NCBI GenBank assembly: GCA_030679955.1
Contig: JAUXSF010000033.1
Coordinates: 80,789-144,788 of the forward strand
Direction of reading: 5' to 3'
From: Chlamydiales bacterium
Lineage (GTDB): Bacteria; Chlamydiota; Chlamydiia; Chlamydiales; JAJFMA01
DNA: 64,000 nt
Shown here: positions 59,498 through 64,000 of the stretch, piece after piece
Position numbering within the stretch: position 1 is the stretch's first letter
How the letters are laid out: each line of letters begins with the position of its first letter
Made by a program: the position numbers and the translations under genes
The notes under the pieces: generated by a model
The model's input: the letters and a program-made list of their open reading frames with translations, nothing else
Told to the model about the DNA's origin: nothing
The model's database searches: none

Positions 59498-60376
59498 ATG
59501 GCCTATGCTTCCGTTGCGGTAGTGACGCGCACAAAGAACCGTCCCTTGCTTTTGAAGCGAGCGATAGCGAGTGTTCTTGCGCAAACATATACTGATTGGA
59601 TCATGGTGATTGCCAATGATGGTGGTGACCCTAAAGTTGTCGAAGATGTATGCCATTCTTTCGGTTCGCAGTTTGAGGGCAAGTATGTACTAGTCCACAA
59701 CGCTACCTCGATGGGTGTTGAGCAGGCGGGTAACCTTGGCGCATTGGGCTGCGATAGCGAATATATTGCGCAGCTTGATGATGATGATACCTATCAACCC
59801 GAATTCCTCGAGACTTGTGTAGACTACATGCGCAACAGCAAACTCCCTGAGTTAGGTGGTGTGATCACACATTGGCATGAGATTTGGGAAAAGATTGAAG
59901 GCGACCGCGTGATCAAGGTCAGCCAGTCAACTAACACTAGATTGCAATTCATTTCATTTTACGAGATGTCCTTTCGCTGCACCATTATCCCTGCATCCTT
60001 CTTCTATCTGAGAAGTGCTTGGGAAAAGGCAGGGCGTTACAACACCTCGTTACACTTTGGCGATTGGGACTTTGCTTTGCGCTTCTTATCACATTATGAG
60101 ATCGGAGTGATCCCAAAACCTTTGGCTAACTATCATCGCCGTACTACAACGGCCTGTAATAATTCGGTTCAAGCGTTCCCGAATCTTCTACAGCATGCCA
60201 CTGATCGCACACGAAACAATTTCTTGCGGGAAGACCTTAAGCAAGGTCGTTGCGGCTTAGGAATGTTAATGGCGCTGTCTCATCAGCTTTCGCAAACAAG
60301 CTTCTGGCAATTGCTGAAGCGAGACCTCAGTCTATTCAAGCGACGCTGGTTATATTCCTCGGAGGGAGCACAATGA
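59498..60376 (+). CDS. family-2 glycosyltransferase (GT-A), paralog 1
   Basis: VAVVTRTKNRPLLLKRAIASVLAQTYTDWIMVIANDGG and LDDDDT (DxD). ATG at 59498. Confidence 0.85.
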   Translation: MAYASVAVVTRTKNRPLLLKRAIASVLAQTYTDWIMVIANDGGDPKVVEDVCHSFGSQFEGKYVLVHNATSMGVEQAGNLGALGCDSEYIAQLDDDDTYQPEFLETCVDYMRNSKLPELGGVITHWHEIWEKIEGDRVIKVSQSTNTRLQFISFYEMSFRCTIIPASFFYLRSAWEKAGRYNTSLHFGDWDFALRFLSHYEIGVIPKPLANYHRRTTTACNNSVQAFPNLLQHATDRTRNNFLREDLKQGRCGLGMLMALSHQLSQTSFWQLLKRDLSLFKRRWLYSSEGAQ

Positions 60377-61212
60377 CTCAACCTTTAGTATCTGTTGTAA
60401 TTCGTACGCAGAATCGCCCAGCGTTTCTTAAACGAGCCCTAGCTAGTGTTGTGGCACAGACGATGTCAGATTGGGAAGTAATCATCGTGAATGATGGTGG
60501 TCCTGATATCTCTATAGATGGCCTAGACAAGCGTGTGCGTATTGTACGCCATAAAACATGCCTAGGACGCAGCCCTGCGGCCAACCGTGGCCTAAACGAA
60601 GCTTGTGGTGACTATGCAGCATTTTTAGATGATGATGACACCTGGGAACCAACCTTTTTGCAAGAGACCACGGAGCACCTTGAAAGCGGACATACCGCCG
60701 TAGCTACCCACGTGACTAAGGTATTAGAGGTTATTTCTGGCGACCATATTGTCACAAAGAAGAAATATCCCCATAAGCCCATCAAGAAGAGTGTGCAGCT
60801 TTTTGAGCTAGCTATTAGCAACTTTTTGCCAATTCACAGCGTTGTATTTTGCCGTCAAGCTGCGCTGAATGTTGGTGGAATAGATGAGTCATTGCCTTTG
60901 CTAGAAGACTGGGACCTCTTTCTACGTCTGGCAGAGCGGTATGAGATCGATATGATCGCCAAACCGTTGGCAAACTATCATCTTCGGGCGAAGGGTAATG
61001 CCTCAGATGAACAAAACACTGTTGTTCAACACCGTGCGCTGTGCATTTATTGCGAGAATTACATTCGCAATAAGTATTTACGTCGTGATATTAAGGAAGG
61101 CCGCTTTGGTCTAGGTACCATGCTCAATATGGCAGAGGCAACCCGCGACCTTAGTTTATGGCGTTGTTTGAAAAACGATTTATTGCGCTTGAAAAGCAAG
61201 GTCTTTAGGTAG
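60373..61212 (+). CDS. family-2 glycosyltransferase (GT-A), paralog 2
   Basis: VSVVIRTQNRPAFLKRALASVVAQTMSDWEVIIVNDGG and LDDDDT. ATG 60373 overlaps the previous stop as ATGA and is preceded by GGAGGGA. Confidence 0.85.
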   Translation: MTQPLVSVVIRTQNRPAFLKRALASVVAQTMSDWEVIIVNDGGPDISIDGLDKRVRIVRHKTCLGRSPAANRGLNEACGDYAAFLDDDDTWEPTFLQETTEHLESGHTAVATHVTKVLEVISGDHIVTKKKYPHKPIKKSVQLFELAISNFLPIHSVVFCRQAALNVGGIDESLPLLEDWDLFLRLAERYEIDMIAKPLANYHLRAKGNASDEQNTVVQHRALCIYCENYIRNKYLRRDIKEGRFGLGTMLNMAEATRDLSLWRCLKNDLLRLKSKVFR

Positions 61213-61218
61213 AAAAGC

Positions 61219-62049: not shown

Positions 62050-63320
62050 TGACAAAGGCTATTGAGGCACGTAATTTATCTAAGCGCTATAGAATTAGTC
62101 ATGAACGTTCGGCTATGTATGACACAATGCGTGAGACGTTGTCTCGCGGCGCTAAACGCCTGGTTCGTTCTATTTTACGACGTCCTTCTAACGAGCAAAC
62201 CTTAGAAGACCTTTGGGTTCTGCGCGATGTTTCTTTCGCTATTGAGCCTGGCACCAAAGTTGGTATTATTGGCAGAAATGGCGCTGGTAAATCGACACTT
62301 CTAAAAGTTCTTTCGCGAATCACATATCCCACCTCTGGAGAGGTTGCTATTCAAGGTAGAGTGGCGAGCCTTTTAGAGGTCGGTACTGGTTTTCACCCCG
62401 AACTCACAGGGAAAGAGAACATCTTTCTTAATGGCTCCATCTTAGGAATGACCAAGACTGAAATACGTAACAAGTTCGATGAAATGGTAGCCTTTTCAGA
62501 ACTCGAGAAGTTTTTGGATACGCCTGTTAAACGCTACTCCAGCGGCATGACAGCACGCTTGGCCTTTGCCGTGGCTGCGCACCTCGATCCTGATATTTTG
62601 ATTGTGGATGAAGTATTGTCTGTAGGCGACTATAGCTTTAGGGACAAATGCCTGAATAAAATGGGCGAAATCAGCCAACAAGGTCGCACAGTTTTATTTG
62701 TCAGCCATAATATGAATACTGTCCTGTCGCTATGTGACCGCGCGTTATATTTGGAAAAGGGTCGGCTGATTACGTATGACACTGTCGACAACGTGGTCTC
62801 CAAATACATGCACCAGCAAGCCGACAAGCAGGCAGCCTGGGTTGGCGAGGTTGGTGATGCTTCCTGTCGTATCCAAAAGGCTCAGGTGTCAGATCCTGAT
62901 ACGAGTCTTGCCAAAGACTTTTTCTATTGTGGGGATAGCGTACGCATCGCCATTAACTACGAGATGGTTCAAACCGCTAGAGACCTTGTTTTAGGTGTCT
63001 CTATTTGTACTCCTCGCGGCTTATGTTTGGCCAATGCCTGGTTATCGCCGCAGCAGCGTGAGCATTCCGAAGCGTTTTCCCAGGGTCCTCATACTCTTGC
63101 TCTTGAATTCGACTCCTCGATGTTCTATGAAGGTGAATATTTAGTAAAAGTTGAGCTCAAACATATTCATGGACGTGTTCTCAGCGCTGATGAAGTTGTT
63201 ATGAAGTTTTCTCTTTATCAGAGCAACGAGCCGAACTGCCTAGAGTGGGACGCACCATGCGTTGTGCTGGGTAAGCAATGGATGGTCGAGAGTCCAAGCC
63301 TATTACAAATGACTCATTAG
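62049..63320 (+). CDS. polysaccharide export ABC ATPase (Wzt/TagH-like) with a C-terminal extra domain
   Basis: Walker A GRNGAGKST, signature YSSGMTARLAFA, Walker B ILIVDEVLSVGD. An additional domain of about 165 aa is beta-rich and Wzt_C-like in position. ATG 62049 overlaps the wzm stop (TGATG). Confidence 0.85.
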   Translation: MTKAIEARNLSKRYRISHERSAMYDTMRETLSRGAKRLVRSILRRPSNEQTLEDLWVLRDVSFAIEPGTKVGIIGRNGAGKSTLLKVLSRITYPTSGEVAIQGRVASLLEVGTGFHPELTGKENIFLNGSILGMTKTEIRNKFDEMVAFSELEKFLDTPVKRYSSGMTARLAFAVAAHLDPDILIVDEVLSVGDYSFRDKCLNKMGEISQQGRTVLFVSHNMNTVLSLCDRALYLEKGRLITYDTVDNVVSKYMHQQADKQAAWVGEVGDASCRIQKAQVSDPDTSLAKDFFYCGDSVRIAINYEMVQTARDLVLGVSICTPRGLCLANAWLSPQQREHSEAFSQGPHTLALEFDSSMFYEGEYLVKVELKHIHGRVLSADEVVMKFSLYQSNEPNCLEWDAPCVVLGKQWMVESPSLLQMTH

Positions 63321-63329
63321 GAGGTAACC

Positions 63330-64000
63330 ATGCCCATGCGAGATTTGTGCGTAGCGATCCCTGTTGGCGGTTGCGTGAACGAACCGTATCTTGAGTATAA
63401 TTTAAAGCTGCTTCGCGACGCCGGATGCCTCATCTATGTTGGCATCGATTCCAAGGAGTCTTTACTCTCTTTAGGAAACTACGAGTCGGTTCGTCGCCTC
63501 TCAGAGCAATACGCTGACAAAGTTTTAGAGTTTCCAGCTGAATCCTACTATCGCCCTGGTAGTATATGGAAGAAGATCTATGATTGCTGGAAAGACTCTG
63601 GGGCTCCCTATGTTAGGGCACTAGGCTATGACGACTACCTACCCATTAAGCTTTTGCGTGAACAACACGCCTTTATGCTTTCTAATCCTAGTATTGAAGC
63701 GTCCTATAGCAACCAGCTCATTGTGGATGAGGTTAAAGAAGAGGAAGTATTCTCCAACACGCGCTTGAACCGCTTTAATCGCATACGAAAACTTGGCAAA
63801 AACCCTTTTAGCTTCATTTGTTGGGAAATGCGTGCAGAGTACATTCTAGATCCCGAGTTTGAAAAGATGTTGATGGTGGGATGCGCTGATTTTGAGTGTT
63901 TGTTCCATACATGGTTATTTAAAGGGGACTCAGCACACTTTAATAGCGTGCGTGATGGCTCTGCTGTGCGGCGTGAACATAAATATACAGTGTCGTACTA
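63330..64000 (+). CDS. hypothetical protein (possible glycosyltransferase), 5' partial view; runs off the window
   Basis: Not in the supplied track. ATG 63330 is preceded by AGGAGG (63319-63324). I translated it by hand to 64000 and found no stop (MPMRDLCVAIPVGGCVNEPYLEYNLKLL...GYDDYLP...). Confidence 0.6.
   Translation, partial: MPMRDLCVAIPVGGCVNEPYLEYNLKLLRDAGCLIYVGIDSKESLLSLGNYESVRRLSEQYADKVLEFPAESYYRPGSIWKKIYDCWKDSGAPYVRALGYDDYLPIKLLREQHAFMLSNPSIEASYSNQLIVDEVKEEEVFSNTRLNRFNRIRKLGKNPFSFICWEMRAEYILDPEFEKMLMVGCADFECLFHTWLFKGDSAHFNSVRDGSAVRREHKYTVSY

Follow-up and report, generated by a model that had tools for sequence, protein, structure and literature searches.

The 64,000-nucleotide stretch of contig JAUXSF010000033.1 analysed here (hereafter the window; Chlamydiales assembly GCA_030679955.1) ends in a group of tightly coupled genes for two glycosyltransferases (GTs), an ABC-2 type permease (Wzm) and an ABC ATPase with an additional C-terminal domain (Wzt). 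They are probably part of a working locus with which an uncultured environmental member of the Chlamydiae assembles a glycan and exports it through an ABC transporter. This suggests a surface polysaccharide that is lacking in the Chlamydia pathogens, and the putative product would be polymeric. The lipopolysaccharide (LPS) of Chlamydiaceae, which serves as the model for chlamydial envelope biology, is a rough lipid A-Kdo3. A preliminary description, drawn up from the sequence alone, had called such a glycan unexpected for Chlamydia; this holds relative to the Chlamydiaceae, but several other environmental chlamydial metagenome-assembled genomes (MAGs) also carry Wzm/Wzt clusters. In the literature on Chlamydiae, including Parachlamydia, Simkania, Waddlia and Protochlamydia, no description of Wzm/Wzt clusters was found. 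The genes at the end of the window are as follows (aa, amino acids).

59498-60376, + strand: GT2a, 292 aa, a soluble family 2 GT-A glycosyltransferase (PF00535, Glycos_transf_2, E 1.7e-16)
60373-61212, + strand: GT2b, 279 aa (PF00535, E 1.3e-24)
61219-62049, + strand: Wzm, ABC-2 type permease, 276 aa (ABC2_membrane, E 1.1e-16)
62049-63320, + strand: Wzt, ABC ATPase, 423 aa (ABC_tran, E 1.2e-23, and Wzt_C)
62049-62813, + strand: nucleotide-binding domain of Wzt, residues 1-255 (ABC_tran, E 1.2e-23)
62814-63320, + strand: predicted C-terminal carbohydrate-binding domain (CBD) of Wzt, residues 256-423, 168 aa (Wzt_C, structure model and Foldseek)
63330-64000 (window edge), + strand: ORF5, first 223 of 294 aa, the gene ending at the window equivalent of 64214

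The five open reading frames (ORFs) lie on the + strand at 59498-64000 as first described, with the stop of GT2a and the start of GT2b overlapping as ATGA and Wzm and Wzt sharing one base as TGATG. ORF5 does run off the window, but its start is at 63330, not at 63331 as had been given, nine bases after Wzt and preceded by GGAGG. GT2a and GT2b, described beforehand as paralogous GT2 enzymes, are full-length paralogues (34% identity, BLASTP E 6e-51) with an unusual C-terminal extension in common, and no transmembrane segment was seen in GT2a. The permease and the ATPase with its extra domain were likewise borne out by Pfam, and as adjacent, co-oriented genes with ABC2_membrane and ABC_tran matches they have the Wzm/Wzt architecture that had been proposed. 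Four strongly hydrophobic segments are present in Wzm at a strict threshold, and its best NCBIfam match is the galactan Wzm/RfbD permease, below cut-off. The five ORFs can be taken as real genes rather than chance ORFs, because they have significant family matches, syntenic homologues elsewhere and ratios of nonsynonymous to synonymous substitution (dN/dS) of 0.02-0.05 against a related strain. A scan of the operon for promoters and terminators gave counts equal to the shuffled expectation.

The ATPase motifs of Wzt are intact (Walker A GRNGAGKS at residue 75, signature YSSGM at 163, Walker B ILIVDE at 183 and H-loop SH at 219). Its best match in the PDB is the full-length O-antigen transporter of Aquifex aeolicus (8dku/7k2t, E 8e-65), in an alignment that extends into the C-terminal domain; TarH/TagH also match. 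The extra domain, put at about 165 aa in the preliminary description, covers 168 aa. Pfam Wzt_C matches residues 269-375 of the protein with 33.8 bits against a gathering score of 30.4, and an AlphaFold2 (AF2) model of residues 256-423, made with an alignment of 38 homologues, is a beta-sandwich with a predicted local distance difference test score (pLDDT) of 89 and a predicted TM-score (pTM) of 0.82. When this model was compared with the PDB by Foldseek, ranks 1-17 were all taken by Wzt CBDs (8dl0, 6o14, 8dky, 5hno, 5hnp, 2r5o) from A. aeolicus, Raoultella O12 and Escherichia coli O9a, with E values of 6e-7 to 5e-5 and query-normalised TM-scores of 0.53-0.60. The reading proposed earlier had been made to depend on a fold like that of carbohydrate-binding modules at this C-terminus, and such a fold is present by all three measures. 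The extra domain is thus predicted to have the Wzt carbohydrate-binding fold, while glycan binding itself would follow by analogy with the solved proteins. At the sequence level the domain is very divergent, with 26 relatives at E <= 1e-3 among 1.84 billion representatives (best 35% identity) and 10-17% identity to the solved Wzt CBDs; sequence divergence is the usual pattern in ligand-specific CBDs.

The operon continues past base 64000. The extension was taken from L001 of the Logan SRR13727519 assembly (window coordinate = L001 coordinate + 52048), which is identical to the window across 4503 overlapping bases; the proteins of the region are NCBI MDP1836162-MDP1836170. It carries four genes.

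L001 11282-12166: ORF5, 294 aa, GT-A fold by modelling
L001 12173-13003: ORF6, 276 aa, GT2 match of 20.9 bits, below cut-off
L001 13004-14062: ORF7, 352 aa (Glyco_trans_1_2, E 2e-11)
L001 14212-15129: ORF8, sulfotransferase, 305 aa (Sulfotransfer_1, PF00685, E 2.7e-12)

The operon therefore runs about 3.2 kb beyond the window, with the sulfotransferase as its last gene after an AT-rich gap of 149 nt behind ORF7; downstream of ORF8 lie a gene for a small membrane protein and then SecA on the opposite strand. ORF5 has only 8 homologues among 5.8 billion proteins and no significant Pfam or NCBIfam match, and a sequence search of the PDB gave no match for ORF5, ORF6 or ORF7. Its AF2 model (pLDDT 88) has as top Foldseek matches only GT-A glycosyltransferases (WrtF, SpsA, K4CP and TarP/TarS, E about 1e-9), and its conserved motifs are CVAIPVGG, GYDD (DxD-like) and RREH. 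The modelled fold and the conserved GYDD support the earlier label of a further GT-like gene in spite of the missing Pfam match, and ORF5 is predicted to be an orphan GT-A-fold, glycosyltransferase-like protein. Like GT2a, the proteins GT2b, ORF5, ORF6 and ORF7 are without a transmembrane segment. In L083, one of the relatives compared below, the ORF5 homologue (11295-12180) is broken into ORFs of 243 and 53 aa, through a frameshift or pseudogene formation or an assembly error.

The genes at 59498-64000 belong together as first proposed, but that extent is too narrow: besides the 3.2 kb downstream, a block of four genes at 47466-50242 also belongs to the module.

47466-48113, + strand: HAD-superfamily protein, 215 aa, nearest to the beta-phosphoglucomutase family (HAD_2, E 7e-37)
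48106-48840, + strand: sugar-1-phosphate nucleotidyltransferase-like protein 1, 244 aa (NTP_transferase, E 2e-10)
48828-49598, + strand: sugar-1-phosphate nucleotidyltransferase-like protein 2, 256 aa, a paralogue of protein 1 (NTP_transferase, E 1.3e-9)
49586-50242, + strand: p218, a third, degenerate nucleotidyltransferase-like paralogue, 218 aa (weak NCBIfam match)

The HAD protein matches the beta-phosphoglucomutase family TIGR02009 (E 1e-31, below the curated cut-off), and its homologues adjoin clusters in L082 (83% identity), L083 (68%), L087 (60%) and L085 (62%). Nucleotidyltransferase-like protein 1 has RmlA-long and AglF-like matches far below the equivalog cut-offs, with homologues at 71% identity in L082, 56% in L083 and 49% in L087; protein 2 matches PDB 4evw, a 'nucleoside-diphosphate-sugar pyrophosphorylase' (E 9e-13), and has homologues 57-65% identical in L082, L083, L085 and L087. 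For p218 no Pfam match was found; it is related to sugar-1-phosphate nucleotidyltransferases by a weak NCBIfam match (E 1.8e-4) and by tblastn to the NTP_transferase genes (24-29% identity), and its homologues in the same four loci are 33-51% identical. The identity of the activated sugar was sought through NCBIfam equivalogs, every match being far below its cut-off.

The comparison of relatives argues for a conserved module. L082 has a Wzt 69% and a SecA 80% identical to those described here, between the same GDPD and SecA flanks, and the Wzt of L083 is 50% identical. The module order HAD-NTP-NTP-p218 / GT2a-GT2b-Wzm-Wzt-ORF5-ORF6(-ORF7) recurs in both: the sugar-activation and GT blocks point the same way in L082 but diverge in L083, the two nucleotidyltransferases are fused into a single two-domain protein in L083, and the p218 counterparts, of about 220-240 aa, adjoin the GT genes. 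GT2a homologues are 60% (L082) and 44% (L083) identical, and L082 is without ORF7 and without the sulfotransferase. In L087 the sugar-activation genes, ORF6, ORF7 and the sulfotransferase accompany another Wzm/Wzt(CBD), and in L085, a MAG labelled Simkania negevensis, the sugar-activation block and ORF5-ORF6 stand with a different exporter. There, a 608-aa ABC_tran protein (5434-7260) takes the place of Wzm/Wzt; it is presumably a fused permease-ATPase, being too long for an ATPase alone. Altogether, sugar activation plus ORF6, usually with Wzm/Wzt, appears to be the conserved core. A scan of Wzt against 185,579 GTDB species representatives gave no near-identical genome; the best chlamydial matches were 46-48% identical and had only the transporter in common with this locus.

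Selection was assessed against the L084 strain (79% nucleotide identity over the aligned 4.4 kb). The dN/dS values are 0.045 for GT2b, 0.026 for Wzm, 0.019 for the first 268 codons of Wzt and 0.020 for the SnoaL-like gene upstream of GT2a. GT2a has only 68% protein identity to its counterpart (L084 1709-2590), against 91-96% for the neighbouring genes, which would fit allele replacement at a specificity-determining GT, or fast divergence. It is highly improbable that the locus is a remnant in decay after horizontal acquisition, or that it is a product of MAG contamination or assembly and has no function in a chlamydial cell. The region does look like a recombination hot-spot, with an insertion of RHS and toxin-antitoxin genes, a truncated WavE gene, a sulfotransferase of low GC content and a second copy of the ORF7 3' end; in L083 the ORF5 homologue is in two pieces, and the closest relatives of Wzt outside the lineage come from Bacteroidota and Cyanobacteria (45-60% identity). 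However, none of the operon genes is shortened in comparison with its homologues, and the possibility of a pseudogenised remnant, raised at the outset, is rejected because dN/dS is 0.02-0.05. The GC content of the core genes (43-48%) also matches that of the window (46%). As to the source of the DNA, the window carries the type III secretion genes SctJ, SctL, SctR and SctT as well as genes for penicillin-binding protein 2 (PBP2), the Suf system, an Ulp1-like protease and ribosomal and translation functions, so the chlamydial origin first assumed is supported by genes of the same contig, as well as by the NCBI label of the MAG, 'Chlamydiales bacterium'. Since these type III secretion, PBP2, Suf and ribosomal or translation genes share the window with the cluster, and since two assemblies agree over 4503 bases and the SecA/GDPD synteny is kept in a different sample, the cluster is part of a chlamydial chromosome and did not arise through faulty binning or assembly.

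If the locus is functional, a pathway can be proposed. The HAD/beta-phosphoglucomutase-like protein and the nucleotidyltransferase paralogues (47.5-50.2 kb) would make one or more nucleoside diphosphate (NDP)-sugars, from which GT2a, GT2b, ORF5, ORF6 and ORF7 would build a chain on a lipid carrier, on the cytoplasmic side of the inner membrane. A feature at the non-reducing end of the finished chain would then be bound by the Wzt CBD, whose fold is supported by the model and whose function is assigned by analogy, and Wzm-Wzt would move the chain into the periplasm by the route known from E. coli O9a, Raoultella O12 and Aquifex. The recently acquired PAPS-type sulfotransferase (PAPS, 3'-phosphoadenosine 5'-phosphosulfate), which has a signal peptide, may decorate the product in this lineage. 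Afterwards the product may be joined to lipid A-core by ligation and carried onward by Lpt, or it may follow another route.

Four observations weigh against a complete pathway of this kind. Neither an initiating phosphoglycosyltransferase of the WecA/WbaP type nor a WaaL ligase was seen among the window ORFs of at least 120 aa; no chain terminator (WbdD kinase/methyltransferase, GT99 or beta-Kdo transferase) was recognised among the operon genes with Pfam and NCBIfam; the GTs are single-domain proteins, and there is no bidomain polymerase as in the Parachlamydiaceae locus L019; and the sulfotransferase appears to be exported while PAPS is cytoplasmic. The role of terminator could be taken by ORF5, ORF7 or the sulfotransferase. 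Because the GT-like proteins are all small and single-domain, with no bidomain polymerase, a short, non-polymeric oligosaccharide also has to be considered, either as a core extension or as a lipid-linked glycan for another acceptor, in which case the CBD would dock the substrate rather than check the length of the chain. A coiled-coil terminator is missing too, unlike in L019, and a truncated gene of the WavE family, which is associated with core LPS, lies beside the cluster. Such a product is nevertheless quite unlikely: capped polymers are the substrates of all CBD-bearing Wzt proteins characterised so far (2r5o, 5hno, 8dku), as many as five GT-like genes together with dedicated NDP-sugar genes exceed what simple core decoration needs, and single-domain GTs can act iteratively.

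The outer-membrane step had been tentatively assigned to a Wza/Wzc pair at 20-24 kb, and here the preliminary description was not supported. The two genes are listed below.

20240-23176, - strand: 978-aa Wzc-like protein, p978 (polysaccharide co-polymerase, PCP, topology and a weak kinase-domain match)
23187-24239, - strand: Wza-family outer-membrane polysaccharide export (OPX) lipoprotein (Poly_export, SLBB, Wza_C)

Wza has an N-terminal signal with a Cys. In p978, two transmembrane segments (at about residues 28-46 and 741-759) and a weak Wzc kinase-domain match (E 6e-5, residues 865-936) were found, and no Pfam match at E <= 0.05, Wzz, GNVR and kinase families included; the P-loop position reads GCGVDYSRS, a degenerate form in which the lysine is missing, and the C-terminus lacks a Tyr cluster. 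The pair is isolated, with no Wzx/Wzy or GT genes adjacent, and lies 36 kb from the cluster with PBP2, Suf and type III secretion genes between. With this distance, the lack of glycan genes beside it and the degenerate P-loop, the pair is a poor candidate for the outer-membrane step of Wzm/Wzt. A capsule-like or free exopolysaccharide, for which Wzm-Wzt would pass the chain to p978 and Wza for passage through the outer membrane, is accordingly regarded as unlikely. In its favour, a genuine Wza and an adjacent protein of PCP topology share the contig, they need a partner pathway elsewhere since they have no Wzx/Wzy or GT genes of their own nearby, and no WaaL was seen in the window. However, the genes in the intervening 36 kb are unrelated, and CBD-type Wzt proteins belong to O-polysaccharide routes, in which the outer-membrane step is ligation by WaaL followed by Lpt and not Wza/OPX. 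ABC-dependent capsules instead use KpsE/KpsD with KpsM/T and KpsC/S; KpsT has no carbohydrate-binding domain. The likeness to such group 2/3 capsule systems (KpsMT-KpsED-KpsCS) consists of ABC export of a cytoplasmically completed glycan and of a Wza-family OPX protein elsewhere in the window. The window scans gave no KpsC-, KpsS- or KpsE-like match, and Wzm scores 23.5 bits with KpsM against a cut-off of 300.

For the glycan export proposed here, the closest known systems include the CBD-bearing Wzm-Wzt transporters of E. coli O9a (2r5o), Raoultella terrigena/Klebsiella O12 (5hno, 5hnp) and A. aeolicus (7k2t, 8dku, 6o14). They have in common with this locus a coupled, separate permease and ATPase, a C-terminal beta-sandwich of the Wzt_C fold on the ATPase, and GT genes in the operon. 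The present locus differs in having no recognisable WbdD-like or Kdo-transferase terminator, a CBD with few relatives and 10-17% identity to the solved ones, GT families without a Pfam model, an appended and apparently exported sulfotransferase, and a host from a phylum of obligate intracellular type. The wall teichoic acid exporter TagGH/TarGH is also similar, as the top NCBIfam models for Wzt are of the TagH type (214 and 179 bits) and TarH/TagH are found in the PDB search; however, these scores fall well short of the equivalog cut-offs (538 and 320), the organism is diderm, and a TagF-like gene is 53 kb away and unlinked. Among other chlamydial MAGs (the Parachlamydiaceae L002 and L019, and L082, L083 and L087), Wzm/Wzt are 44-69% identical. 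L002 and L019 have only the transporter in common with this locus; in L019 the Wzt (271 aa) lacks a CBD and is accompanied by bidomain GT2-GT1 enzymes, an epimerase and methyltransferases. The transporter described here is a regular representative of the CBD-bearing Wzm/Wzt family. The phylum in which it occurs is unusual, and the locus has one odd accessory enzyme.

This enzyme, ORF8, has the motifs PQKTGTH, RDPRDQIVS and GSWKWHF, which align to PKSGTH, RNPRD and GDWKNHF of mammalian SULT2A; it matches SULT structures and carries the PAPS-binding motifs of cytosolic SULTs (5'-phosphosulfate loop and 3'-phosphate motif). ORF8 and all five homologues found start with a Sec-type signal (M, a basic residue, 12-16 hydrophobic and then small residues), the true start of ORF8 likely being Met20, and the protein appears to be exported. 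An exported enzyme of the PAPS type is unusual, because PAPS is a cytoplasmic metabolite. ORF8 is probably a late and recent acquisition in the lineage, since it is absent from L082 and L083, has a low GC content (40.5% against 46% for the window) and is placed within a duplication of ORF7. The last 80 residues of ORF7 are repeated beyond ORF8 as an 80-aa ORF (MDP1836170.1, annotated 'glycosyltransferase'), the two copies (L001 13817-14053 and 15196-15432, window-equivalent 65865-66101 and 67244-67480) having 80% nucleotide identity, and this flanking duplication marks a recombination scar. The homologue in L087 (64% identity) also stands beside a HAD-NTP and Wzm/Wzt(CBD) cluster, and two more distant homologues are in a housekeeping context or beside peptidoglycan genes. 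Linkage of ORF8 to glycan clusters is thus suggestive, not firm; a strict association of the family with such clusters was considered and set aside, as only 2 of the 4 contexts examined fit. Sulfate as the cap read by the CBD was also considered and is unlikely, given that L082, without the sulfotransferase, keeps a CBD 59% identical, and that ORF8 appears to be exported. The homologues (P0171-P0175) form a small PAPS-type family, all with Sec-like signal peptides, and on the metagenomic contig L090 (2618-4987) three tandem sulfotransferase paralogues lie between a class A PBP and MurG fragments.

Selection-maintained export of the O-antigen type in environmental relatives implies that surface polysaccharides occur within the phylum. 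It would follow that they vary between strains, because GT2a has diverged, GT sets are swapped and a sulfotransferase has been inserted, and that the lineage leading to the pathogens either lost them or never gained them. This bears on host range, amoebal recognition, defence against phages and predators, and serology of chlamydia-like organisms. A more far-reaching proposal, put forward here as a doubtful one, is that some environmental Chlamydiae make a capped surface polysaccharide (smooth-LPS-like or capsule-like) with an unusual sugar from a largely phylum-restricted module, consisting of the beta-phosphoglucomutase-like HAD protein, the three nucleotidyltransferase paralogues and the orphan GT-A families, and that some lineages sulfate it after export with host-derived periplasmic PAPS, or release the enzyme onto host molecules. 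Should the sulfotransferase family be active outside the cytoplasm, a question of metabolite parasitism would be raised. The locus is of interest for the phylum in which it occurs, for its chlamydia-restricted accessory families and for its apparently exported sulfotransferase; the orphan GT-A family of ORF5 and the NDP-sugar pathway are tractable targets for biochemistry.

Between the sugar-activation block and the GT operon lie genes of other kinds.

50243-59052: 8.8-kb insertion splitting the module, with two small ORFs, an RHS toxin, a truncated WavE-like gene and a ParE/RHH pair
51836-57343, - strand: RHS/YD-repeat toxin, 1835 aa (RHS_repeat and TEN_YD-shell matches)
57487-58260, - strand: WavE-like gene of the LPS-core synthesis family (PF07507, E 7e-28)
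58471-58979, - strand: ParE/RHH toxin-antitoxin pair (ParE_toxin; DUF6290/RHH_3)
59053-59403, - strand: SnoaL-like protein, 116 aa, divergent neighbour of the GT operon (SnoaL_2, E 2.7e-13)

The 8.8-kb stretch is an insertion here, because in L082 the p218 homologue abuts the SnoaL homologue (7041-7044) with nothing between them; the combination of RHS and toxin-antitoxin genes was found only in this genome among the loci compared, and the SnoaL-like gene has the same position in L082 and L084. Apart perhaps from WavE, the insertion has no part in the glycan machinery. Of the 305 positions in the WavE profile, the best-matching stretch of the WavE-like gene covers only 53-206; there are in-frame stops just upstream of the gene, and its counterpart in L084, in the corresponding place, is longer at the N-terminus. 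The copy described here is probably truncated N-terminally, as a pseudogene or a shortened protein. In the RHS toxin, a variable C-terminal region follows a DPxGL-like motif, and two small ORFs (50712-51260 and 51273-51830, - strand) with no Pfam match may be its immunity genes. The 95-aa ParE-family toxin overlaps the 80-aa RHH/DUF6290 antitoxin, between the WavE-like and SnoaL-like genes, and related DNA is also present in L084, with no genes called there.

Further away in the window, the Ulp1/Peptidase_C48 protein (768 aa, 10721-13027, - strand, E 3.6e-8) is of the eukaryote-like deubiquitinase/deSUMOylase type. An IspD/MobA-like nucleotidyltransferase gene (4201-4890, + strand) converges on the TagF-like gene (4859-6073, - strand), a member of the CDP-glycerol glycerophosphotransferase family (Glyphos_transf, E 1.7e-13), and a Zn-dependent alcohol dehydrogenase (9575-10639, - strand) is encoded nearby. 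These three genes may form a set for a polyol-phosphate glycan, unlinked to the main cluster.

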